From Desulfobulbus propionicus DSM 2032 (GTDB lineage: Bacteria > Desulfobacterota > Desulfobulbia > Desulfobulbales > Desulfobulbaceae), in NCBI RefSeq assembly GCF_000186885.1, contig NC_014972.1, positions 1,320,001 through 1,352,000 on the forward strand: DNA of 32,000 bases, written 5' to 3'. Position 1 is the stretch's first letter; every line of letters begins with the position of its first letter. A program made the position numbers and the translations under genes. The notes under the pieces were generated by a model. That model was not told the origin of the DNA. It saw only the letters and a list, made by a program, of their open reading frames with translations, and did no database searches. Of this stretch, positions 1 to 29,718 are shown piece by piece.

Positions 1-344
1 GATGAGATGTTCCCAATACCGGCGTTGCCAGATGCCGCGTTCTTCTTTGCTCGTCCGGCTGGCGTTCCGGCGTTCCCCTTGGGGGATATACCGCGAGAAT
101 CCTGCTTTGATGAGCATCCACCGTCCGGGGTAGTCCGTGTCCCCTGGTGGTAGCGTCCACATCGCATGCAGATGTTCGGGTAACACCACCATGGCGTCGA
201 TGGTGAAGGGATGTCGTTCTTTTACCACGCCGACAACCTGACGAAGGACGTCAATGTATTCCACCAACAGGGACCGGTGTCGTTCCGCAAGATTCACGGT
301 GAAAAAAAGGTGCCGCCATCAACCCGCGCGCGCCGGTATCGCAT
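1..344 (-). pseudogene. rayT: REP-associated tyrosine transposase (RAYT, IS200/IS605-type Y1 transposase). The reading frame is broken at a T7 tract and the 3' end runs off the window.
   Basis: Minus-strand translation from ATG at 344 gives MRYRRARVDGGTFF, then a stop two codons later. One base back (-1) at the T7 run (A7 on + strand, 302-308) the frame continues as FTVNLAERHRSLLVEYIDVLRQVVGVVKERHPFTIDAMVVLPEHLHAMWTLPPGDTDYPGRWMLIKAGFSRYIPQGERRNASRTSKEERGIWQRRYWEHLI. The GGTxFFTVNL, LPxHxH and WQRRYWEH motifs are RAYT hallmarks. Confidence 0.85.
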
Positions 345-371
345 TGCATTCCTCCGGTTTTACGACACAAT

Positions 372-396
372 GTTGGGGTTCGTGCCTCACCCCAAC
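372..396. repeat. REP-like hairpin immediately upstream of the RAYT start
   Basis: Perfect 8-bp stem GTTGGGGT (372-379) / ACCCCAAC (389-396) with a 9-nt loop, 28 bp from the rayT ATG. Only one copy was noticed in this window. Confidence 0.55.
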
Positions 397-399
397 CTA

Positions 400-550
400 C
401 CTTGCTACCTTGCTCAACCAGGTATTTCTCACAAAAATCCAGATAGAAACGGAGCCACTTTTTGTAATGGATGTGATACGTGTCGGCAATGTTGTGGGCG
501 AAAAGACACTCCTCGAAACGAGTCAGTAATGTAGCGGGAATTGAAATCAT
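400..550 (-). pseudogene. N-terminal ~50-aa stub of a tyrosine recombinase (integron-integrase-like), truncated at the REP/RAYT junction
   Basis: Minus-strand MISIPATLLTRFEECLFAHNIADTYHIHYKKWLRFYLDFCEKYLVEQGSK has the spacing of the integrase N-terminal SAM-like domain (LLxxxxxxLxxxxxxxxTxxxYxxWxxxFxxF). No catalytic domain follows. It lies divergent to, and 217 bp from, the attI-like crossover. The assignment rests on pattern and context, not on a search. Confidence 0.35.
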
Positions 551-570
551 AGGGAATCTCGAAGACGGGT

Positions 571-592
571 TATCCTTCCAAATGGAAGGATA
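571..592. promoter_or_regulatory. 22-bp palindrome upstream of the integrase stub (candidate operator)
   Basis: TATCCTTCCA-AA-TGGAAGGATA has perfect 10-bp arms and sits 21-42 bp upstream of the stub start codon (550). A second, 13-bp palindrome TTGTCA-A-TGACAA lies at 625-637. Confidence 0.35.
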
Positions 593-741
593 TACAGAAA
601 AGCGGGTATTCAAAAACCATCGATTTGTCAATGACAATCTTTATAAATACTAGTAAGTAAGCCATGATATCGGCCTTAAACGCAAGGGCAGAGGAATGCC
701 GGCACGAAAAACTCATCCCGGCCCGCTCTGCAAATCTAGAT

Positions 742-773
742 GTTATACAGATCAGCAGAATAACTTGTTAGGC
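742..773 (+). other. attI-like recombination site with crossover core GTTAGGC (767-773)
   Basis: GATGTTATACAGATCAGCAGAATAACTTGTTAGGC contains a GTTAT repeat, then CAGCAG, then an inverted AATAAC/GTTAGG simple site. The layout is reminiscent of attI1. The core GTTAGGC is the exact complement of the cassette attC R'' box. Confidence 0.45.
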
Positions 774-1655
774 CCATCACCGGGCAAAATCGCAAACTGT
801 AAGTAAGGGGGAACTTCATGGCGATGACAAAGTGTAAGGAGTGCGGAACCGAGATCAGTACCACTGCTGACGCATGCCCCAAATGTGGCGCAAAACAAGT
901 GCGAACCTCTGGCTGTGCCAAGGTTGTTCTTGGCGTTCTCGGATTCTTCGTTTTTGTCGCAATTGTCGGACAATGCAGCCGTTCTGATACGAGCTCGCCT
1001 TCAACGTCAGCAACCTCTGCAAGCTCATCGTCAGCTACTGCAAAGCCGGCAGCGGCGCCAACCCCGCCTCCTCCTCCCGCCCCAGGGTCACAATGGCGCT
1101 ACGGCCAAGACGAAGACCCGATGGGCAAAGGCACAACTCTGCTGGCTCAGGTAACAAGCACAAATGTAGTGCTGTTTGATTCGCCGTATGGCGGGCCTCA
1201 GCATGGAACACTTACTTTGCGCACCCATCCTCGTCACGGAAAAGACATCATTCTCGGCATTGAGCGCGGGCAGTTTCTTTGCCGCTCTTACGAGGATTGC
1301 AATGTTCTCGTGCGCTTCGACGATCAGAAAGCGGTGACTTACGCTGGTGTAGGCCCTGCAGACAATAGTACTGAGTCAGTTTTCATCCGTAACTACTCGC
1401 GCTTTGTCTCAAACATGCTCAAGGCCAAGCGGGTACGTATCTCAGCTGAGGTGTACCAAGAGGGGGCGCCCGTATTCGAGTTTGACGTTAGCGATTTCAG
1501 TGAGGCCAAGTACAAGGGCAAGCAGTGATTCTTGCATCACCGCGGGTGGGCCTAACAATTCGTTCAAGCCGAACTTGCTTCGTTACGGCAAAAGCGTGGC
1601 AGAAACAGCTTGCCACGCTTTTGCCTCCACTACGCAAGTCGGCTTAACTCAGGCG
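768..1655 (+). mobile_element. Integron gene cassette (one ORF plus attC)
   Basis: The cassette starts TTAGGC, right after the G of GTTAGGC. It ends at the G of the attC R' core GTTATCC (1655). It contains a single ORF with its own RBS, and the attC starts 22 nt after the stop. GC content is lower than in the rest of the window. Confidence 0.7.
818..1528 (+). CDS. Cassette-encoded zinc-ribbon, single-pass membrane protein of unknown function
   Basis: RBS AAGGGGGA lies 6 nt upstream of the ATG. The N-terminus CKECGxxxxxxxxxCPKCG is a Cys4 zinc ribbon. It is followed by a TM helix (VVLGVLGFFVFVAIV), a Ser/Ala/Pro-rich linker, and a ~150-aa C-terminal domain (QWRYGQDEDPMGKG...FDVSDFSEAKY). Confidence 0.8.
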   Translation: MAMTKCKECGTEISTTADACPKCGAKQVRTSGCAKVVLGVLGFFVFVAIVGQCSRSDTSSPSTSATSASSSSATAKPAAAPTPPPPPAPGSQWRYGQDEDPMGKGTTLLAQVTSTNVVLFDSPYGGPQHGTLTLRTHPRHGKDIILGIERGQFLCRSYEDCNVLVRFDDQKAVTYAGVGPADNSTESVFIRNYSRFVSNMLKAKRVRISAEVYQEGAPVFEFDVSDFSEAKYKGKQ

Positions 1656-1661
1656 TTATCC
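1550..1661 (+). other. Integron attC (59-base element), 112 bp
   Basis: Boxes are R'' GCCTAAC (1550-1556), L'' TTCAAGCC, L' GGCTTAA and R' GTTATCC (1655-1661). TTCAAGCCGAACTTGC pairs with GCAAGTCGGCTTAA, leaving two bulged top-strand bases. Next come an 8x8 internal loop and a 15-bp apical stem (1587-1601 / 1611-1625, 9-nt loop). The ends closely match my memory of aadA-type attC ends (GTCTAACAATTCGTTCAAGCCGA...GGCTTAACTCAAGCGTTAGAT). Confidence 0.8.
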
Positions 1662-1662
1662 C

Positions 1663-1765
1663 GTTTCTGGTTATCACTCAGTGTTTCCAGCTTGAAGGTT
1701 CACGATTTACTTTTTTAGGTTTTCGCTCCCTGGTTCTCATGCGGTTTTGGAGGATAACCAGAAAC
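1663..1765. repeat. 103-bp element with 13-bp perfect terminal inverted repeats (MITE-like)
   Basis: GTTTCTGGTTATC (1663-1675) and GATAACCAGAAAC (1753-1765) form the terminal repeats. They are flanked by near-identical direct repeats CGTTATCCC (1654-1662) and CGTTTATCCC (1766-1775). No ORF lies inside. Confidence 0.5.
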
Positions 1766-1851
1766 CGTTTATCCCCTTTGCGTCATGCAAATGGGCTTGC
1801 GTGCATTCAGTATCGGGAATGAATGACCAGCCCCTCCTTATCGAGCAATTC

Positions 1852-2394
1852 CTAGATTCCACTGGGAAGCTTGTCCCGCATCATCTGCTTTCTCTCGATA
1901 GTTTGGCCATCGACTCTAAAGGTGCCGTCGCCCACGGCATGGAGCATTCTCTTCTCCGCGCGAGCATTGTCAACGTAGGCCGCGATTCCTCGCAGCACGA
2001 CGATGTTGTAGGGCGTCAGGATATCGACCACTCGGCATTCGATATTTGCGAGGCACTCCTGGATGAGTGGTGCCCGAACATGCTGGGCTGGCAGACGGGT
2101 GAGGTTGAACTTCGTGAACTTATCCGTGTCAGCTCCCGAGCATGTGCCCACGCCGACAACGGTGTCAATCAGGTCCACGGTTGGGATGGCAAGGACACAC
2201 TCCTTTGATTCCTGCAGGGCCGTGTAGGAAAAGTTCCATGGCCCGGTGGTCAGGGCAAACTCTGCGGCAAAATCAAGGACCATGGTCCACGAGATGGTCA
2301 TGACGTTGTCTTTGTTGCCGTCATTCGTTGTCACCAAGACCACCGGACCCGGCTCCACGAGCGTAAATGCCCGGCTTAGTTGCAGACTTTCCAT
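1852..2394 (-). CDS. Flavin reductase-like FMN-binding (split-barrel) domain protein
   Basis: 180 aa. The sequence runs FTLVEPGPVVLVTTNDGNKDNVMTISWTMVLDF...ECVLAIPT...VGTCSGADTDKF...APLIQECLANIECRVV, typical of the PF01613-type flavin reductase fold. GC is lower than in downstream genes. Confidence 0.85.
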   Translation of the reverse strand: MESLQLSRAFTLVEPGPVVLVTTNDGNKDNVMTISWTMVLDFAAEFALTTGPWNFSYTALQESKECVLAIPTVDLIDTVVGVGTCSGADTDKFTKFNLTRLPAQHVRAPLIQECLANIECRVVDILTPYNIVVLRGIAAYVDNARAEKRMLHAVGDGTFRVDGQTIERKQMMRDKLPSGI

Positions 2395-2545
2395 GTTCTC
2401 TCCGTTCGGGTATCGACGTGATCGGGATCATCCGACTCCTGTCTTTTTGTCCGTCAGGAAAACATTCCCGGACGCTTCCCCTATGTTCGAACCATACCGC
2501 TGTGTCGGTCGTCTGCAAACACGAAACGCAACGACAAGCGGCACA

Positions 2546-4396
2546 TCAGCGCAGGTAGAACACCCAGGCGAGCAGGATCGTGGCCAGCAGGGCCAGGGCC
2601 AGCAGGGGCACGCCCACCTTGGCGTAGTCGGCAAATTGGTAGCCACCCGGTTCGCGGACGATCATGTTGACCGGCGAGCCCAGCGGCGAGACAAAGGCGG
2701 CCGAGCAGGCGATGGCCACGGTCATGGCGCAGGCCTGGGGCGAGACGTTCATGGCCAGACCGATATCGACCGCCATCGGCGCCACCAGCACCGCGGTCGG
2801 GGTATTGGAGAGAAACAGGCCGACCAGCGCGGTGAGCACGAACAGGATGGCCAGCACCAACAGCGGCGGACTGTTGCCGACCAGGGCGAGCAGGGTCTGC
2901 GAAACCAGGGCAATGGCGCCGGTCTTCTCCAGGGCCAGGGCCAGGGGCAGGATGCCGGCGATGAGGACGATGGTCTGCCAGTCGATCGCCTTGTAGCAGC
3001 TATCGGCCTGGACGCAGCGGGTGAGGATCAGGGCCGCGGTGGCGCCGAGGACGGCGGTGACCGTGGGCAGCAGGTCAAAGACCATCAGGCCGACCATGAC
3101 CGCGAGAATCCCCAGGGCGATGGGTGCCCGGTCGCGGGCCGCGATCACCTCGTGGTAGTCCTGGGGCAGGGTGAGCAGCAGGTATTGGTCGCGATGCCGG
3201 CGCAAGCGGAGGATGTCGTCCCACGCTCCGCCCATCAAGAGCACATCGCCGAATTTGAGCGGCTGGTCGGCGAAATGGGTGGTCAGGGTCGCGCCCTTGC
3301 GGCGGATGGCCAGCACCTGGCACTGGAACTGGGAGTAGAAACGGATTTCGCGGATCGACTTGCCGATCAGGGTGGAGTCCGGGGTGAGCATCACCTCGCC
3401 CACGCCGATCACCTGAAAAAAATTTCTGCGCAGGGCCGGATCGTCGGGCAGCTCCATGGTTTCGAGGAAAAAGGCGGCGGCAAATTCGGCGATCCGGGCC
3501 GGCGTGCCGATGACCACCAGCAGGTCGTCGGCGTGAAAAACGCTCTCCGGACGGGCGGGGACAATGGCCCGGCCGCTGTCGGTGATGGTGTGCAGGGCAA
3601 TGAGGTTGATGTGGTGGTGGGCGCCCAACTGCATCCGGGCCACGGAGCGGTCGATCAGGTCGGATTTGGCGGTGACCCGCAGCAGGGACACGCGCTGGTC
3701 GATGCCGTAGCGGTGGAGCAGGTCCTCGATGGAGCGTTCCTGTCTGCGTTTGACCGTGGTTCGCCGGGCGGCGAGCAGATGGCGGCCCCACAGCAGCATG
3801 AAGCCGATGGCCAGGGCGAGAATGACCAGGCCGAAAGGGGTGAAGCTGAAGAAGGACAGCGGCTCCTGGCCACGCTCGCGGAGCACGTTGTTGACCACGA
3901 TGTTGGGCGTGGTGGCCACCAGGGTCATCATGCCGCTGATCAGCGAGGCGGCCGCCAGGGGAATGAGCAGCCGCTTGTGGTTGATGTCCGCCTTTTCCGC
4001 CACCGCCATGGTGATGGGGATGAAGATGGCGGCGGTGGCGGTGGAACTCATGAACGAGCCCACCAGGCTGGAGGCGCCCATGAGCAGCATCAGCAGCCTG
4101 CTTTCGCTGGCGCCGCCGCGATCGAGTACCGCCTCGCCCAGCCGCTGGGCAATGCCGGTGTGGACGATGGCCTCGCTGACGATGAACATGCAGGCGATGA
4201 TGATCACCACCGGGTTGGAAAACCCGGAGAGCGATTCGCCGACATCGAGCACGCCGGAGAGCAGCAGAGTCAGCACCACCAGCAGGGCGACCAGGTCGCC
4301 GCGGATGCGGTTGGAGACGAGGAGAACGGCCGCGCCCGCCAGGGTGGCCACGGAGATGAGCAGGTCGGGATGGATCATGAATGGTTGCGTGATCAA
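2546..4396 (-). CDS. SLC13/DASS-family permease with two central TrkA-C (RCK_C) domains
   Basis: ~610 aa. Two multi-TM halves flank two RCK_C-like segments (VSLLRVTAKSDLIDRSV...LLVVIG and GEVMLTPDSTLIGKSIREI...GDVLLMGG). The ORF-track start at 4396 is TTG. An ATG at 4378 (MIHPDLL) is the alternative, and neither has a strong SD. Confidence 0.9.
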   Translation of the reverse strand: MITQPFMIHPDLLISVATLAGAAVLLVSNRIRGDLVALLVVLTLLLSGVLDVGESLSGFSNPVVIIIACMFIVSEAIVHTGIAQRLGEAVLDRGGASESRLLMLLMGASSLVGSFMSSTATAAIFIPITMAVAEKADINHKRLLIPLAAASLISGMMTLVATTPNIVVNNVLRERGQEPLSFFSFTPFGLVILALAIGFMLLWGRHLLAARRTTVKRRQERSIEDLLHRYGIDQRVSLLRVTAKSDLIDRSVARMQLGAHHHINLIALHTITDSGRAIVPARPESVFHADDLLVVIGTPARIAEFAAAFFLETMELPDDPALRRNFFQVIGVGEVMLTPDSTLIGKSIREIRFYSQFQCQVLAIRRKGATLTTHFADQPLKFGDVLLMGGAWDDILRLRRHRDQYLLLTLPQDYHEVIAARDRAPIALGILAVMVGLMVFDLLPTVTAVLGATAALILTRCVQADSCYKAIDWQTIVLIAGILPLALALEKTGAIALVSQTLLALVGNSPPLLVLAILFVLTALVGLFLSNTPTAVLVAPMAVDIGLAMNVSPQACAMTVAIACSAAFVSPLGSPVNMIVREPGGYQFADYAKVGVPLLALALLATILLAWVFYLR

Positions 4397-4460
4397 AGGG
4401 GGAGGGGAAACGGTGGAGCCGGAGCCGTTGGCCGGCCGGCCGCACGGGAGGGAACCAGCG

Positions 4461-5060
4461 CTACAGCGTCAGTTCCTCCACCCGGCATGTCTGGGCCCCG
4501 GCGGCGCGTATCTCTGCGAGGGCCCGTTCGCTGTCGCCCGGCTGGAGATCGACCCCGGCCACGGCGTCAATGAGCACGGTGACCGCCAGGCCGCGCAGGC
4601 GGGCATCGAGGACCGTGGCGCGCACGCAGTAGTCGGTGGCCAGGCCGCCAATGTAGAGGTGGCCGACGCCAAGTTGGCGCACAAGATCGGCCAGCACGGT
4701 GCCGGCATCGTCCACGCCGTCGAAGGCCGAGTAGCCGTCCAGCTGTTCGTCAATGCCCTTGAAGAGAAGAATGGTGTCGGCGGGCAGGCGCAGGCCCGGA
4801 TGAAATTCGGCGCCCGGTGTGTTCTGGACGCAGTGCACCGGCCATAGGCCGCCAAAGGGCTGAAAATGACCGGTATGCGGCGGGTGCCAGTCGCGGGTGG
4901 CCACGACGGGCAGCCCGGCGGCAGCAAAGGCCGCCGCCGCCCGGTTGAGCGGTTCCACCACCCGGTCGCCATCGGGCACGGCCAATGCCCCGCCCGGACA
5001 GAAATCGTTCTGCACATCCACCACGATCAACGCGGCCTTGGGGGTGCTGTTGTGGTTCAT
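4461..5060 (-). CDS. pncA: Nicotinamidase/pyrazinamidase (isochorismatase family)
   Basis: [28 protein letters not shown]...ATRDWHP...GLATDYCV. The start ATG at 5060 forms an ATGA overlap with the pncB stop, and a GGAGG-like RBS lies upstream. The longer ORF to 5288 overlaps pncB and is rejected. Confidence 0.9.
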
Positions 5061-6487
5061 GCCTGCCTCCTGCCCGCATTCATCGCCTCGATCAGGCGAC
5101 AACGCAATGCTTTTAGTTGTGGTGAAATCGACACCTTGTAGCGGTGCGGATTGACGAAGCGGCGGCAGCCCTGGGGCAGCAACGCCAGATCGCGGCGGCA
5201 GCGCTCGGCCATGGTCTCGATCGGTTCCTCGGCCAGCAGCCGTTGTCCGCGCTCCATGACCACCTGGCGCAGATCGACCAGCCGGCACGGCGGCAGGGTG
5301 GTGTGGCGCAGGGGGTTGGTCGGGTCATAGACGGTGGTGCCGCCGGTCACCGCATCGTCTTCGAGGCAGACCAGATCCTGGAGATAGCTGCCTTCCGGGC
5401 CGACGGCGCGCAGCACCCGCTTGGCTCCGGGCAGGGTAGCCTTGGCCAGGTCGCTGGTGCGCTTCATCTTGGGCTGGCCGTCGATGGCCACCAGTTTGTA
5501 CACCCCGCCCAGGGCCACGCCGCCGGGGCCGGAGGCAGTGGCCAGTTTGGTGCCGACGCCGTAGATGTCCACCCGGCCGCCCTCGTTGCGGATCGATTCG
5601 ATCACCCATTCGTCGAGTTCGTTGGAGGCAAGGATGCGCACCTCCGGGAAGCCCGCCGCGTCGAGCATCCGCCGGGCCTCACGCGACAGGTAGGCCAGGT
5701 CGCCGGAATCAAGGCGGATGCCGCGCAGGTTGTGGCCCCGCGCGTGCAGCTCGCGAGCCACGGTGATGGCGTTGGGCAGGCCGCTTGTGAGGGTGTCGTA
5801 GGTATCGACCAGCAGGACGCTGCTGTCCGGGAAGGCGTCGGCATAGGCGCGGAAGGCGGTCAGTTCGTCGGGGAAGGACTGCACCCAGCTGTGGGCGTGG
5901 GTGCCGCGCACCGGCAAGCCAAAGTCCATGCCCGCGAGCACGTTGCTCGTCCCCTTGGCGCCGCCGATGCAGGCGGCCCGCGAGGCGGACAGGCCGCCGT
6001 CCGGTCCCTGGGCGCGGCGCAGACCGAATTCGATCACCTCGCCATCGCCCGCGGCCGAGCAAATACGCGCCGCCTTGGTGGCCACCAGGGTCTGGAAGTT
6101 GATGCTATTGAGCAGTACGGTCTCCACCAGCTGCACCTCGGTCAGGGTGCCGGACACGGTCAGCAGCGGCTCGTTGGCAAAGACCACGCTGCCCTCAAGT
6201 GGAGCCACCACCGTGCCACAGAAACGAAAGGTGCGTAGATACTCAAGAAATCTGGGCTTGAACAGGTGCAGGCTGGCCAGGTAGCCGATCTCCTCTTCGG
6301 TGAAGCGCAACTGCTCCAGGCAATCCAGGGCCGGAGCGAGGCCGGCGAAGATCGCATAGCCGCCCTCGAAGGGATTGGTGCGGAAATAGAGATCGAACAC
6401 CGCCTGCTTGTCGGCCATCCCTTCTTCCAGGTAGCCGGCGAGCATGGTCAGTTCGTACAGATCGGTGAGCAGGGGAGAGATGCGCAT
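5057..6487 (-). CDS. pncB: Nicotinate phosphoribosyltransferase
   Basis: 476 aa. [24 protein letters not shown]...FDLYFR...GTHAHSW...RLDSGDL are canonical NAPRTase motifs. Confidence 0.92.
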
Positions 6488-6653
6488 GGGATGCTCCGGG
6501 TGAGGAGGGCGGTCGATGGTTCCCGGGTGGACAACCAGCTTTTTTGATAGTGCAAAATCCGGGCGGCCGCAAGCGATTTCCCCGGAAGGGGAGCCGCGCC
6601 GGGCGAGCCATGGGGCACGTTCCGGCGCGGTTGTTCCCGCGTCGCGGGCAGGG

Positions 6654-7289
6654 TCAGCGGATGAAATTCATGTAGATTTTGTTCTCGCGCTCGGGCGGGG
6701 GAATGGTGGCCTTGCCGTGCTCGACCAGTTTCATCAGCCAGGCCATGTTCTTGCCCAGGGTGCGCATGATCTGGGTGCCTTCCTCGTCCTTGACCGCCTC
6801 GCCGGGGCGGGTGCCATGGATCACGTTCCAGTAGTTGGCCGATGGCATCAGCATTTCCGAATAACAGATGAAATTATTCAGTTGGTTGAAGGTGGGTAAC
6901 CCGCCGGAGCGGCGTACCGCCACCACCGAGGCGCCGACCTTGTGGCGCAGCATGCCGTTGTTGACCCCGGTGACGTAAAACACCCGGTCGAGAAAGGATT
7001 TCATGGTGCCGCCGATGGCCGAGAAATGCACCGGCGAGCCAAGGAGGATGCCGTCGGCCGCCTTCATCTTCTGGATCCACTCGTTGACCGGATCCTCGGT
7101 CTGCACGCACTGCTCGTTGCGCTTCTTGAAACACTGGCCACAGGCCAGGCAGCCACGGATGGCCTTGTTGCCCACATGGATGATCTCGGTGGCGATACCT
7201 TCCTGGGCCAGCGCATCGGCGACCATCTGGATGGCGTGATAGGTGTTGCCGTTCTTGTTGGGACTGCCGTTAAAGGCCACGACGTTCAT
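6654..7289 (-). CDS. NADPH-dependent FMN reductase / iron-sulfur flavoprotein-like (flavodoxin fold)
   Basis: 211 aa. [16 protein letters not shown]...[15 protein letters not shown]...[19 protein letters not shown], with RBS AAGGAGAAG upstream. Confidence 0.88.
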
Positions 7290-7460
7290 TGTCTTCTCCT
7301 TGGGTTGAATGGAATGGGTGTATCTACTTCCCTTTTACGACCGTTTCGCCTATAATGAAACTTATGCTTTTCAACGTCAATAACGAACTTTTTGGTAACG
7401 TAGTGCATTTTTCGAAACATAGTACCTTTTTTGTTCCTTTGGGCAGGGTGGAGCGGGGCA

Positions 7461-7808
7461 ATGGACGCTGAGCTCGACACGGAACGGTTGATCTACCGGG
7501 ACAAAGAGTATGCCTGCGGCATCGACGTCACCCTGGCGGTGGTCGGCGGCAAATGGAAGGCCTCGATCCTCTGGCACCTGGCGGGGGCGACCATGCGTTT
7601 TTCCGACCTGCAGCGCCAGTTCGCCGACACCACCCGCAAAATGCTCACCCAGCAGCTGCGCGAGTTGGAGGCCGACGGTCTGGTTCACCGCGAAGTGTAC
7701 CCGCAGGTACCGCCCAAGGTGGAGTATTCGCTCACCGACAAGGGGCGGAGTATCTTTCCCATCCTGCAACAGATGTGCGAGTGGGGCAAACAGTACCTGC
7801 GCGACTGA
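7461..7808 (+). CDS. HxlR-family winged-helix transcriptional regulator
   Basis: [22 protein letters not shown]...RFSDLQR...[39 protein letters not shown] 7461 is preferred (GGAG 8 nt upstream) over the ORF-track start at 7431. The gene is divergent from the flavoprotein gene across a 171-bp AT-rich spacer that contains TATAAT at 7351-7356. Confidence 0.88.
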
Positions 7809-7852
7809 TCGCGACAAGGCCCGCCGCTTCCCGATCAACACGGAGACCCACC

Positions 7853-8872
7853 ATGGAACCCCACGAACAACGCCAGCCGGCCAGCCCGCGCGCTCCCTTT
7901 GCCCATCTGACCCCGGAACGCATCCTCCGCGAGGTCGAAACGGCCCTGGGGCGTGACTGCTCCAACCTGTGCCGCTCCTACAACAGCTACATCAACCGGG
8001 TGTTCGAGCTGGCCGATGCGGAGGGCAACGGCTTGGTGGCCAAATTCTACCGCCCGGGCCGCTGGTCGCGCCAGGCCTTGCAGGACGAGCACGACTTTCT
8101 CCTTGAGCTGGCGGCGGAGGAAATCCCGGTCATCGCGCCCCTGCCGCTAAGCGACGGTTCCACCCTCGGTTGCTGCGATCAGACCTTTTTTGCCGTTTTT
8201 CCGCGCAAGGGCGGGCGCTGCGTGGACGAGCTCCTCGACGAGCAATGGCTGGAGGTCGGCCGTCTGCTGGCGCGGGTGCACCAGGTGGGCGAGCGGCGGC
8301 GGCCGCGTGATCGGGTAACCCTGCATCCCGCCGAAACCACTGCGGCCCAGGTGGCGTTGCTGTGCGACAGCGGTCTGATCCCGGTGGATTTGCGTGAAGC
8401 CTACGCCCGGATCGCCACCCAGATCATCGAGCTCGTTCAGCCGCTTTTCGCCCGTGGCGAGGCGATCAGAATCCACGGCGACTGCCATCGGGGTAACCTG
8501 ATCCACCGGCCGGGTGAATCGTTTTTCCTGATCGATTTCGATGACATGGCGGTTGGTCCGCCGGTCCAGGATCTGTGGATGCTGCTGCCCGGCCCCCCGG
8601 AAGAGTGCCCGGTCGAGCTGGACCTGCTGCTGGAGGGCTACGAAACCTTCCGCAGCGTTGACCGTGCCAGCCTTCGCCTGATCGAACCCCTGCGGGCCAT
8701 GCGGTTTGTGCACTACTCGGCCTGGTGCGCCCGTCAGGTGCTCGACGATGGCGCCACCAGCGTGATCCCTGATTTCGGTTCGCGCGGGTATTGGCAGCGG
8801 GAAATCGCCGACCTCCACGATCAGTTGGCGCGAATCAGGGAAGGGCAACATCCGTCGGGCAATGCCCCCTGA
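7853..8872 (+). CDS. srkA: Stress response serine/threonine kinase SrkA (YihE/RdoA family)
   Basis: From MEPHEQ: YNSYINRVFEL...KFYRPGRWS...HDFLLEL...IHGDCHRGNLI...IDFDDMAVGPPVQDLWML...EPLRAMRFVHYSAW, colinear with E. coli YihE as I recall it. The upstream part of ORF 7553.. overlaps the HxlR gene and is rejected. Confidence 0.88.
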   Translation: MEPHEQRQPASPRAPFAHLTPERILREVETALGRDCSNLCRSYNSYINRVFELADAEGNGLVAKFYRPGRWSRQALQDEHDFLLELAAEEIPVIAPLPLSDGSTLGCCDQTFFAVFPRKGGRCVDELLDEQWLEVGRLLARVHQVGERRRPRDRVTLHPAETTAAQVALLCDSGLIPVDLREAYARIATQIIELVQPLFARGEAIRIHGDCHRGNLIHRPGESFFLIDFDDMAVGPPVQDLWMLLPGPPEECPVELDLLLEGYETFRSVDRASLRLIEPLRAMRFVHYSAWCARQVLDDGATSVIPDFGSRGYWQREIADLHDQLARIREGQHPSGNAP

Positions 8873-9060
8873 GCCGGTCGGCGTCCGTCCGAGAAAAATC
8901 TTTCGCAAGCCGCTGGGGTCAGGTACAATTATTTTTTGAATTGACGATCGATCGTCGGCCATGAGGCCAGCGCCGGGCCATGATCGATTCGCCGTGGTTT
9001 TTGATGGGTAGGGCCGGATGCCGGCTTTACCGTTTTCATTTTTTCTTCAGGAGAAGATCC

Positions 9061-9333
9061 ATGAAAAAAATTTGCGTGTTGTTCATGTACGCCGCCGTGG
9101 CTGCTGCCCTGGTCGGCTGTGGTACCGCCACCATTCCCCCCAACTATTCGTCGACCAACCCCGATCTGATGCGCATCGGCGGCGACACGCCGGGCAGCCG
9201 GGAGCCTGAGATCATCAACATGGGGTCCTACTGCCTGCAGGTGACCGAGAAATGGAAGGCCGACGGCAAGACCCCGGATGATCAGATCATCTGGACCAAG
9301 GACAGCTACCGCAAGGCAATTCCCTGCCGGTAA
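9061..9333 (+). CDS. Small lipoprotein, unknown function
   Basis: 90 aa. MKKICVLFMYAAVAAALVGC has a lipobox (LVGC). RBS AGGAGAAG lies upstream, and third-position GC is high, like neighbouring genes. Confidence 0.7.
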   Translation: MKKICVLFMYAAVAAALVGCGTATIPPNYSSTNPDLMRIGGDTPGSREPEIINMGSYCLQVTEKWKADGKTPDDQIIWTKDSYRKAIPCR

Positions 9334-9475
9334 GCGGGCGGCCAATGCTTCAATGCGCAACACAAACGGCTGACTCGCCGCGTACGGATCGTGGGGGACA
9401 GGTCCTGGGGTACAAGGCGTTCGAATAACGTGTTCTCGCCTTTTTCCGTTCGTTTTCTCTGGATGAGGTGCATGC

Positions 9476-9820
9476 ATGATCAAAAAGACAACACTTGTCC
9501 TGATGCTCTGCCTGCTGTTGACACCGTCCGTGGGATACTCGCATCATCACCACGGCGACGCGGCCCTGGCCTGGGGGCTGACCGGTTTGTTCATCGGCTC
9601 GATGCTCACCGCCGCCGCCTACCGGCCGCCGGTGGTCTATGCGGCGCCGCCAGCGGTTTACCGGCCGCCGGTGTATGCCTATGCCCCGAGCGTGCCGCCG
9701 GGCTCCTGCCGCTGGGAGCGCTATGTGCTCGATGGCTACGGTCGCGCCCTGCTCGACCCCTACGGCCGGCCGATCAAGGAATATACCATCGGCCCCTGTG
9801 ACTACCCGCCGCCCTATTGA
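9476..9820 (+). CDS. Small secreted/membrane Pro-Tyr-rich protein, unknown function
   Basis: 114 aa. It has a signal peptide MIKKTTLVLMLCLLLTPSVGYS, then HHHH, a Gly-rich hydrophobic segment and PPVVYAAPPAVYRPPVYAYAP repeats. The Cys-containing C-terminus ends PPPY. RBS GAGGTG lies upstream. Confidence 0.65.
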   Translation: MIKKTTLVLMLCLLLTPSVGYSHHHHGDAALAWGLTGLFIGSMLTAAAYRPPVVYAAPPAVYRPPVYAYAPSVPPGSCRWERYVLDGYGRALLDPYGRPIKEYTIGPCDYPPPY

Positions 9821-28325: not shown

Positions 28326-28829
28326 TCAGATCGGTTGCACGTTGTCGCCAATGGGGGTGGTGATCTGATATCCCCGCTCCCCCTTGTAGGGGTTGAACAG
28401 CAGGATCGGGCAGGCGGCTCGTTTCAACACCCGGTCGGCGACACTGCCAAGCATGATTTTCTCGATGCCCTGGGCACCGTGCGTGGCCATGACGATCATG
28501 TCGATCTTGTTGTCCATGGCGTAGCGGACAATAATATCCGCCACCTCGCCGATGATCACCGTGCCGCCGCATCCGGGGCTGGCGGCCTTGTGCTGCTCGA
28601 TCAGGGCAGCCATTTTCTTTTTGGCGTTCTCTTCCATTTCCTTCTCCACTTCCGTCACCGAGGCGGGGTAGAAACCCGCGTCGGCGGCCACTTCGGCAAA
28701 ATGGCCGACCACGTGGACAAAGGTGATCGTCGCTCCAAGTTTATTGGCGATGCCGCTGGCAAAGGCAGCCAGATCATCGGTGTGCTGGTGAAAATCGACC
28801 GGTACTAGAATCTGCTGAATGTCTTGCAT
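28326..28829 (-). CDS. Universal stress protein (UspA family)
   Basis: 167 aa. ILVPVDFHQHTDD...DMIVMATHGAQGIEKIMLGSVADRVLKRAACPILL, with RBS GGGAGGAG. Confidence 0.9.
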   Translation of the reverse strand: MQDIQQILVPVDFHQHTDDLAAFASGIANKLGATITFVHVVGHFAEVAADAGFYPASVTEVEKEMEENAKKKMAALIEQHKAASPGCGGTVIIGEVADIIVRYAMDNKIDMIVMATHGAQGIEKIMLGSVADRVLKRAACPILLFNPYKGERGYQITTPIGDNVQPI

Positions 28830-29082
28830 ACGCTCCTCCCTGGAGAATAGTGAACGAATGTCCCGCTTGACGGGCGTTGACCTCTTCCGTCGTGGCCTTC
28901 CTTCGCGGCGGCGAAGGGAACGGCATGGAACGGATTTTCTGCATAAATTTATAAAAAGTGTGTGGTGATTTGGGAATGGAGTTTAATTGGATAAAAATTA
29001 TAGAGAATTTCTATCCCTTTTTCTCCTGGTGGGGCCAGGCACGGCCGGATGGGGTGCTTTGGAACCGCCTGCTCTTCTTCTG

Positions 29083-29718
29083 CTATTTTTTTTTCGTCAA
29101 GGAATGTCGAAGATCGGCCATCTGCTTGTCAAAGCACGCGGGGCAACAGCCGTGGGAAACCCGCACCCCTTTCATTTTGAGCAAATATTCCTCCAGGCTG
29201 TACCAGTCCTTGTCCTGGGGCGTCTGCTGGGCGACCCGAATTTTTTTGCAGTAACTGCAGACCGGGAGAATCGCTTCATACAGCTCCACCTTGCGCAGCA
29301 GATCCTGTTTGACAAGACAGTTGGCCATGCGAAAGAGCAATTCATCGCTGTCGATCGGTTTTTGCAGGAAATCATCCGCGCCCAGGCGCAGGGCGTCGAT
29401 GGCCGCCTGCATGTCCCCATAGCCGGTTAGAATGATCACCATGGTCGAGGCGTTGCGCCGTTTGGCCGTCTTGAGCACCTGGAAGCCGTCAAGTCCCGGC
29501 ATGACCAGATCGGTGATCACCAGATCCCACTGGCCGCTGTCGATCCTGGCAATGGCTTCTTCTCCGCTCGCCGCCTGGGATACCGTGAAGTTGGGCGCGT
29601 CATTGGCCAGGTCGCGGGCAAGGCTCCTGCGGATAAGCGGCTCGTCGTCGACCAGAAGAATGGTTTTCCGGCTACCGCCTTGCCCAACCTGGTGCTGTGT
29701 TGCCTCTGCGTGTACCAT
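29083..29718 (-). CDS. Response regulator: REC domain plus a C-terminal Cys4 (CxxC...CxxC) motif, with no recognisable DNA-binding or enzymatic output
   Basis: ATG 29718 follows GGAGAAAG. REC reads ILLVDDEPLIRR...LVITDLVMPGLDG...IILTGYGDMQAAIDALRLGADDFLQKP. The tail is ILPVCSYCKKIRVAQQTPQDKDWYSLEEYLLKMKGVRVSHGCCPACFDKQM. Confidence 0.88.
   Translation of the reverse strand: MVHAEATQHQVGQGGSRKTILLVDDEPLIRRSLARDLANDAPNFTVSQAASGEEAIARIDSGQWDLVITDLVMPGLDGFQVLKTAKRRNASTMVIILTGYGDMQAAIDALRLGADDFLQKPIDSDELLFRMANCLVKQDLLRKVELYEAILPVCSYCKKIRVAQQTPQDKDWYSLEEYLLKMKGVRVSHGCCPACFDKQMADLRHSLTKKK

Follow-up and report, generated by a model that had tools for sequence, protein, structure and literature searches.

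In integrons, the integrase IntI recombines the folded bottom strand of an attC site with a double-stranded attI site between G and TT, and extrahelical bases in the attC mark the strand that is recombinogenic. Clusters of at least two attC sites lacking integron-integrase (CALINs) have been described in a survey of bacterial genomes (Cury et al. 2016, PMC4889954), which discarded 431 single attC sites and searched for integrase pseudogenes with an IntI C-terminal profile and PF00589. Here we analyze a 32,000-nt stretch of the chromosome of Desulfobulbus propionicus DSM 2032 (the window), in which an earlier note, made from the sequence alone, had proposed a decayed integron consisting of an integrase stub, an attI-like site, and one gene cassette with its attC. 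We read positions 401-1661 of the window, which include the gene Despr_1166, as what is left of an integron in the D. propionicus DSM 2032 chromosome, an interpretation to which we assign a probability of about 0.95.

The locus resembles integrons with an inactivated or lost intI (origin iii in PMC4889954) in having an attC cassette without a functional integrase, as a result of intI loss. Unlike a CALIN, it has one attC, and so belongs among the "single attC sites," and it retains attI and an N-terminal stub of intI. The recombinase gene expected beside an integron array, one matching TIGR02249, is represented in the window by codons 1-46 only; since the allelic intI is intact in three other assemblies (L121, L122, and L123), the window holds a derivative of a complete integron rather than a complete one. 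Of the two labels offered by the earlier note, "fossil platform" is apt, whereas "CALIN-type" does not fit a locus with one attC in 32 kb, as the definition needs at least two. Because the pseudogene profile of the survey was C-terminal, a 46-codon N-terminal stub would be missed by it, and with single attC sites also discarded the locus would go uncounted in surveys of that type. Part of the "single attC" noise in genome surveys probably consists of real fossils of this kind.

Loss of the Integrase Gene

The divergent, integrase-like stub that had been placed 217 bp from the crossover is the beginning of intI. Its start codon (CAT, 548-550) lies 217 nt from G767, and its minus-strand frame reads MISIPATLLTRFEECLFAHNIADTYHIHYKKWLRFYLDFCEKYLVE before entering a repetitive extragenic palindromic (REP) hairpin at 371-400. 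The true intI portion is 46 codons long (about 50 amino acids had been claimed), and 45 of the 46 residues are identical to residues 1-46 of P0307, a 485-amino-acid protein that scores 394.5 bits on the TIGR02249 integron integrase model (cut-off 265). P0307 is encoded at the chromosomal locus of the stub in three independent assemblies, L121 (metagenome-assembled genome [MAG] GCA_029267735.1), L122, and L123. The gene order in these assemblies is APH, HxlR, flavodoxin-like, NAPRTase, isochorismatase, CitMHS, flavin reductase, (SIR2_2 gene), intI, (RAYT), TauE, cytochrome, RF-1, and PIF1, RAYT being a REP-associated tyrosine transposase gene, and it matches the surroundings of the window in D. 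propionicus contigs. For blastn alignment of the alleles, the reference was L001, a D. propionicus contig 99.7% identical to the window over 1-2600. Three segments of L001 align with L121 (Table 1), and the same three align with L123 at 98.8%, 98.3%, and 99.7% identity.

The junctions of the two alleles were read directly. In L121, 12 nt separate the stop codon of intI from the REP hairpin, and in DSM 2032 codon 46 is joined to those same 12 nt. Given this fusion of codon 46 to the spacer that follows the stop, intI was lost by one clean, in-frame deletion of 1320 nt, comprising codons 47-485 and the stop codon. The loss is thus due to a single deletion abutting the REP element, not to insertion of the RAYT gene and not to the gradual decay that the word "decayed" in the earlier note implied.

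The endpoint G/CTCAACC (412/413, after codon 46) is shared by the window and an approximately 85%-identical lineage represented by L011 and L012 (alignment A4). L013 retains 18 more intI codons than the window, and the other endpoint of the deletion is always 4-12 nt from the REP hairpin. These positions suggest either a recurrent deletion, associated with REP/RAYT or with microhomology (CT), or the spread of a deleted allele by recombination. An intI C-terminal remnant was sought beyond the RAYT gene, where L003 7046-7300, read by eye, has only a short unrelated open reading frame (ORF).

Pfam scans of the 128-amino-acid ORF and of the 51-amino-acid stub gave no match, and a word-indexed homologue search with the stub returned two short proteins only. 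One of these, the 18-codon-longer stub of L013 (P0002), aligns with profile positions 1-56 of PF13495 at an E-value of 1.8e-4, below the gathering score. PF13495 is the N-terminal SAM-like domain of phage integrases. In an exhaustive phmmer search, P0002 matched 1132 proteins at E ≤ 1e-3. In each of the best 150, the aligned part is at the N-terminus or close to it, the best stretch beginning no later than residue 72. Eight of ten longer matches tested run on, past a low-complexity linker, into TIGR02249. The 482-amino-acid IntI of L020 scores 392.5 bits on this model (cut-off 265) over residues 171-481. Complete members of this "long" clade have 470-520 amino acids and are labelled integron integrase by their sources. 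Since the best homologues of the stub align N-terminally and most of those tested continue into TIGR02249, the similarity to tyrosine recombinases that the earlier note expected is to integron integrases, and the stub is, judged from these alignments, the start of an extra N-terminal domain that precedes the canonical enzyme. It matches the first 46-65 residues of the long integrases (the best unrelated one at 65% identity, the allelic IntI at 98%); unlike those complete proteins, the window keeps only the first half of the extra domain.

Long integron integrases number at least 8000 database proteins, from Desulfobacterota, Nitrospirota, anammox Planctomycetota, and others. They carry a second SAM-like domain and a low-complexity linker ahead of the canonical IntI, as in L020 (9279-10727), L028 (10001-11509), and P0307. 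A literature search on N-terminal extensions of integron integrases found no description of this one.

The Cassette as a Discrete Unit

The core motifs bounding the proposed cassette are G767 followed by TTAGGC (768-773), the R'' box GCCTAAC (1550-1556), and the R' box GTTATCC (1655-1661). The first bases of the cassette are complementary to R'', as the earlier note had pointed out, and the unit is bounded by core sites on both sides. In L121-L123, positions 772-1653 of the window are replaced by 1961 nt that encode a SIR2_2-domain protein (611 amino acids; L121 7861-9696, minus strand) with its own attC. Identity between the alleles breaks after GTTAG and resumes at CGTTATCC; the difference between them is therefore an exact swap of a SIR2-like cassette for the Despr_1166 cassette, and it begins and ends at the predicted core sites, with an uncertainty of no more than the bases that the alleles share. 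The 72-nt replacement attC, TGCTAAC AAAGC GCTCCACCTGACCGCTAT ... ATAGCGGCAGGTGAGC TTGGTC GTTATCC, also carries two additional bases, C and A, on its R''/L'' arm. SIR2_2 domains are common in anti-phage defence; PADLOC gave no match for the SIR2-like protein.

The same cassette also occurs elsewhere. An 8-kb stretch of an environmental contig (L124) holds it at 94.7% identity over window positions 767-1658, preceded by ...GGCGTTAGGCCCATCACC and followed on the far side by GCGTTAGGTGCC, with identical boundaries. In L019, a protein homologue with 72% identity is encoded behind the same GTTAGGCCCAT start and is accompanied by a 60-nt attC of the same family. The comparison with relatives that the earlier note had recommended thus finds the cassette present or absent as a discrete unit, swapped in conspecifics and included in the L124 array. 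An attI joined to the flank without any cassette would read AATAACTTG/TTATCCCG.

The attC Site and Its Relatives

All the elements of a 112-bp attC listed in the earlier note are present: four boxes, two bulged bases, an 8x8 spacer, and a 15-bp apical stem. For the bottom strand of 1545-1665 the folding energy is -34.2 kcal/mol, compared with a mean of -16.9 (SD 2.75) for shuffled sequences (z = -6.3; 0 of 200 shuffles equal). The structure comprises the apical stem, an 8x8 internal loop, and two helices, one formed by the R boxes and one of 15 pairs by the L boxes. The L-box helix carries two extra bases on the R''/L'' arm, C1565 and A1573 of the top strand (G and T on the bottom strand), so that four boxes, extrahelical bases on the expected arm, and a stable bottom-strand hairpin occur together. 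We also scanned for attC-like sites with rules of our own (an AAC...GTT pair 50-160 nt apart, at least 5/7 R-box complementarity, and an L-box helix with bulges permitted). The site at 1550-1661 was the sole one on either strand of the window, and mononucleotide shuffles gave 1 hit in 10 trials. Rfam, which has no attC family, yielded 0 hits.

A blastn search of a plasmid collection with window positions 1540-1670 matched 4310 records, mostly through the ends of the site. Coverage of the query reached at least 80% in 218 of them, the best matches running from 1550 to 1661-1663 at 88-90% identity. In each of three records inspected, the matching segment is the recombination site of the aac(6')-Il (aacA7) cassette of class 1 integrons (examples are on pEGKP4.1, pJB12, and p8MO13m20_VIM), and the cassettes beside it carry blaOXA-10, blaVIM-1, or blaVIM-2. 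The window attC is identical to the aacA7 attC at 101 of 112 positions (90% over the full length), and the two have in common their length of 112 nt, the bulged bases, the 8x8 loop, and the length of the apical stem. The two closest aacA7 copies agree with the window at every base of the first 37 nt and again from column 77, in the 3' internal loop, to the end of GTTA, and the copy on pJB12 differs by one base on each side; beyond GTTA the aligned sites diverge (GTTAGCC, GTTATGC, and GTTATCC). The ends ..YTAACAATTCGTTCAAGCCGA ... GGCTTAACTCAGGCGTTA that typify the aadA/aacA7 family are both identical to those of aacA7. The earlier note was thus right that the ends are of aadA type and mistaken that the center is unrelated.

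Differences from the aacA7 attC are confined to the apical stem-loop, where the window departs at four pairs with compensatory double changes, one single-sided pair, and one loop base. One apical pair (38-76) is mismatched in the aacA7 copies, and 0 pairs show a one-sided change that preserves pairing. With the canonical attC structure, 94.6% of the cells in the alignment are paired, versus 18-44% when the partners are slid. In contrast to the aacA7 cassette, the gene in the window encodes a zinc-ribbon membrane protein and not an acetyltransferase, and its host is the chromosome of a sulfate-reducing member of the Desulfobacterota and not a clinical plasmid. The aacA7 attC has been assigned to the Xanthomonadales model (Ghaly et al. 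2021, PMC8352920); the label "Xanthomonadales-type" for the window attC is by likeness to aacA7.

The stretch of L124 that holds the window cassette (1-8049; ENA ERZ15185882 NODE_3217) is a homogeneous array with 14 attCs of the aadA/aacA7 type, 60, 92, 112, and 114 nt in length. Another of them (5902-6013) is identical to the aacA7 attC at 106 of 112 positions; when the two are compared by eye, four of the six differences pair up as two double changes in the apical stem. The attCs of cassettes found at attI sites of the long-IntI type (L011 and L121) belong to other types, and for this reason the Despr_1166 cassette looks foreign to its own integron lineage and imported from a pool of aadA/aacA7-type cassettes.

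The attI Site and Leader

Like the site in the window, attI1 lies between a divergent intI and the first cassette, has its crossover at G/TT of a GTTAGGC-type box, and shows an inverted ...TAAC box just upstream and a GATGTTAT-type direct-repeat motif further upstream. Unlike attI1, to which it is otherwise unrelated in sequence, the window attI has a core, GATATACAGATCAGCAGAATAACTTGTT, that is specific to a subclade of long integrases; its boxes are putative IntI sites. The proposal of an attI-like site upstream of the cassette is supported by platforms with intact integrases. Window positions 744-770 (ATACAGATCAGCAGAATAACTTGTTAG) recur, at 27 of 27 bases, in L020, a different Desulfobacterota MAG, where the site is upstream of an intact intI at a distance of 217-218 nt, and the core is approximately 93-96% identical to corresponding sites in L021, L028 (an uncultured Desulfobulbus with an intact long IntI), and L063. 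The contig L021 terminates precisely at ...CTTGTT.

An alignment of ten platforms (A7) has two conserved blocks, GATGATATACAGAAAAGCG near the intI start and the core GATATACAGATCAGCAGAATAACTTGTT, and similarity is lost entirely beyond GTTA. When the core was searched for in degenerate form, 18 metagenome contigs showed 18 different continuations, usually with a ribosome-binding site (RBS) and ATG within 20-40 nt. The base after the core is a purine in 17 of the 18, and 7 of the 18 fit GTTRRRY, counted by eye, against approximately one expected by chance. Platforms of the D. propionicus type alone have five distinct continuations: TTAGGCCC in the window, TTAGCGAG in L121-L123, TTAGCTTT in L011, TTAAGACC in L012 and L013, and TTGTGTGT in scaffold L003. 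Between intI and attI, GGATATACAGAAAAGCG (588-604) repeats a portion of the attI core in the same orientation, 38-54 nt upstream of the intI start (repeat D12), and the palindrome TTGTCAATGACAA is conserved in the closest platforms only; both may be integrase-binding or regulatory sites.

Other contigs (L104, L110, L114, L119, L106-L108, and L116-L118) carry the 28-nt attI core and a first cassette with intI undetected. Some intI-less contigs keep the intI-attI leader without the gene, and six (L106-L108 and L116-L118) share a different leader of up to approximately 125 nt (approximately 50-125 nt in pairwise comparisons). In L114 the core lies approximately 100 nt past the end of a glmS-like gene. 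The L003 scaffold, from a short-chain-alkane-degrading culture, has at 8296-8663 a 368-nt segment with the 3' end of a reverse-oriented methyltransferase-like ORF, followed by NN and a 25-nt repeat of the attI core.

A Model for the Locus

The ancestral order is the one still present in conspecifics: TauE, RAYT-REP, a divergent intI encoding 485 amino acids, attI, one cassette, and the flavin reductase gene. The IntI reaction places an incoming cassette immediately after ...AATAACTTG/TT, and the Despr_1166 cassette probably entered in this way, by IntI-mediated recombination of attI with attC, before or independently of the deletion. In DSM 2032 the recombinase was removed by the single 1320-nt in-frame deletion, which takes in everything from codon 47 to the stop codon and comes within 12 nt of the REP hairpin, leaving the 46-codon stub, an intact attI, and one cassette (Despr_1166 with its attC). 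Without IntI in cis, the cassette would now be fixed in this strain, unless an integrase acts on it in trans.

Several considerations weigh against the interpretation of the locus as an integron remnant. The evidence is all comparative, drawn from natural variants rather than from observed recombination. The attC call rests on identity to the aacA7 site and on the fold. The alleles with an intact intI come from metagenome and MAG assemblies, though three independent ones agree, and our census of intI in DSM 2032 covers the 32-kb window. Homologues of Despr_1166 in L014 and L016-L018 lie in ordinary chromosomal contexts without attC, so the ORF alone is not diagnostic, and a scan for sigma-70-like promoters found none for the cassette, with nothing on the plus strand of the leader.

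Two other origins for the attC-like hairpin have next to no chance of being right. The first, that 1550-1661 is a REP-like element or a transcription terminator with coincidental core matches, draws on its position 21 nt past a stop codon with a REP element close by; it is refuted by the 90% full-length identity to a known attC with compensatory changes, by the swapping of the cassette as a unit, and by the copy of the same cassette in the L124 array, and in addition no T-run follows the hairpin, whose sequence is unrelated to the local REP. The near identity to the aacA7 attC might instead indicate a fragment of a clinical class 1 integron, acquired by contamination or recent transfer. The extent of the plasmid match refutes this idea as well: it is limited to the 112-nt attC, ending at R'' and GTTA, with the cassette and attI unmatched. 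Moreover, the integrase is of the long Desulfobacterota type, the attI is unlike attI1, and the locus, whose place in the chromosome is conserved, occurs in 23 contigs assembled independently.

The present role of the locus is a separate matter. It is possible, though we hold this only tentatively, that the retained attI is a working docking site on which an IntI encoded elsewhere acts in trans, so that cassettes keep turning over. L011 and L012 have the same truncated stub boundary and different first cassettes, scaffold L003 joins a platform with deleted intI to other DNA exactly past CTTGTT, in several metagenome contigs the attI core persists together with a first cassette but with no detectable intI within 1.4 to 11 kb upstream, and action in trans is among the origins named for integrase-less cassette clusters by Cury et al. 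(PMC4889954). Yet the ten displayed Despr_1166 contigs all have the same single cassette and structure, and no second D. propionicus intI appeared among the best 120 relatives of the Desulfobulbus-type IntI, a non-exhaustive list. The L003 join, which contains NN and a 25-nt duplication, may reflect variation at attI within the population or an error in scaffolding, and differences between lineages could also arise by homologous exchange across 99%-identical flanks. Such exchange, instead of integrase action in the lineage, is in turn an unlikely source of the cassette difference between strains. Flanks that are 98.3-99.7% identical on either side could move a cassette and, separately, the allele with deleted intI, but the breakpoints fall to the base at G/TT of attI and of the attC R' box, a fit that exchange does not need, and each cassette would still have had to enter at attI at some time in the history of the species.

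The locus is an unusually clean example of integron death: intact and deleted alleles coexist in one species, the deletion is one in-frame event beside a REP element, and the cassette position is exchangeable to the base. It goes beyond the routine in its base-exact "before and after" alleles, in a REP-adjacent deletion whose intI endpoint is found again in a second lineage, and in an attC nearly identical to that of a clinical cassette. This near-twin of the aacA7 attC accompanies an unrelated gene in an anaerobic sulfate reducer and also occurs in an environmental array of 14 cassettes; it is a data point for where resistance cassettes obtain their recombination sites, and for cassette flow between distant phyla and between integrons with very different integrases. 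More speculatively, integrase-less attI platforms could be maintained as docking sites served in trans, and an L124-like array could be a reservoir shared by the Desulfobulbus and aacA7 attCs. We consider these two readings because intI has been lost repeatedly while the attI core stayed intact and first cassettes differ (the window, L011-L013, L104, L110, L114, and L119), and because the L124 array holds both the window cassette and an attC with 106 of 112 positions like aacA7; both are doubtful. The same REP-adjacent endpoint in two lineages is a hint of a recurrent REP/RAYT-associated deletion process. If the reservoir is real, cassettes would have flowed from an L124-like array into a distant phylum and into class 1 integrons. 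A literature search for "Desulfobulbus propionicus" together with integron found nothing relevant.

The Cassette Protein

The cassette ORF has a good RBS (GGGGGA) ahead of its ATG and matches ADW17336.1 (Despr_1166) of D. propionicus DSM 2032 exactly. The product has an N-terminal zinc ribbon (PF13240, 25.9 bits), a transmembrane helix at residues 33-51, a disordered linker, and a beta domain at residues 90-236. An AlphaFold2 (AF2) model has a mean pLDDT of 82.5 and is confident in the beta domain, which weakly resembles Bartonella IalB (3DTD; Foldseek E-value 7.8e-4, TM-score 0.54 normalized to the target). PADLOC and NCBIfam gave no matches for the protein. The family comprises 666 homologues, found both as cassettes and as ordinary chromosomal genes. 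In outline, its members have a zinc ribbon in the cytoplasm, a single membrane-spanning helix, and a beta domain resembling IalB.

Neighborhood and Composition

Features of the locus are listed in Table 1.

Table 1. Features of the integron remnant and its flanks in the window, and alignment of contig L001 with L121
Feature	Window position	Strand	Remarks
RAYT (REP-associated tyrosine transposase) gene	1-344	-	Truncated by window start; from translations; left neighbor of integron remnant
REP hairpin GTAGGTTGGGGTGAGGCACGAACCCCAACA	371-400	-	Single exact copy in window; 12 nt from one end of the intI deletion
Spacer, 12 nt	401-412	-	Follows intI stop in intact allele; fused to codon 46 here
intI remnant, codons 1-46 of a 485-aa "long" integron integrase	413-550	-	45/46 identical to P0307
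intI-attI intergenic region	551-766		Conserved block GGATATACAGAAAAGCG at 588-604 and palindrome TTGTCAATGACAA at 625-637
attI TGTTATACAGATCAGCAGAATAACTTG/TTAGGC	741-773	+	Crossover between G767 and T768
Complete gene cassette, 888 bp	768-1655	+	Swapped whole in L121-L123; also inside L124 array
Cassette ORF Despr_1166, 236 aa	818-1528	+	Pfam PF13240; ADW17336.1
attC, 112 nt: R'' GCCTAAC, L'' GTTCAAGCC, L' GGCTTAAC, R' GTTATCC	1550-1661	+	Folding; 101/112 to aacA7 attC
Cassette-distal conserved sequence, common to both alleles	1656-1851		L121 identity resumes at window 1654
Flavin reductase gene Despr_1167	1852-2394	-	Pfam PF01613, E 1.6e-21; same position in L121-L123
L001 1-9596	up to 413		98.98% identity to L121 (blastn)
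L001 9594-9954	411-771		98.3% identity to L121 (blastn)
L001 10837-18655	1654-9472		99.72% identity to L121 (blastn)

On the left, translations of the DSM 2032 RAYT gene show a frameshift in a run of seven A residues (A7; 302-308), and the gene may be a pseudogene or the shift a sequencing error. An intact allele of 178 amino acids is encoded in L002-L006, from the same species, and the L002 copy, scanned as the 177 residues that precede its stop, reaches 195 bits on NF047646, for which the cut-off is 80. An inverted partner of the REP hairpin lies on the opposite side of the RAYT gene in L003, so that the gene stands between inverted REP hairpins, the arrangement of a REP/RAYT element. For the hairpin, 0 exact copies are expected in the window by chance versus the one found.

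On the right, the product of the 1852-2394 ORF matches ADW17337.1 of D. propionicus DSM 2032 exactly. This flavin reductase gene was considered as a reversed cassette and rejected, as it is the fixed right flank of the integron in both alleles. Between it and the cassette, an imperfect 25-nt inverted repeat (1651-1777) begins inside the attC R' box and contains four GTTATC-like boxes, at 1655, 1670, 1753 (reversed), and 1766. We rejected this repeat as a second attC or mini-cassette: it lacks the R''...R' order, its fold has a z of only -2.4, and it is kept in the allele with the different cassette.

Rfam and tRNA scans of the window gave no matches. The patch of visibly lower GC in which the earlier note had placed the integron is apparent in the composition profile, with a GC content of 0.42-0.56 across 345-2545 versus 0.63 in the remaining window. 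The same profile has other lower-GC stretches (0.54-0.56) at 7001-7500, 9001-9500, and 28501-29500.

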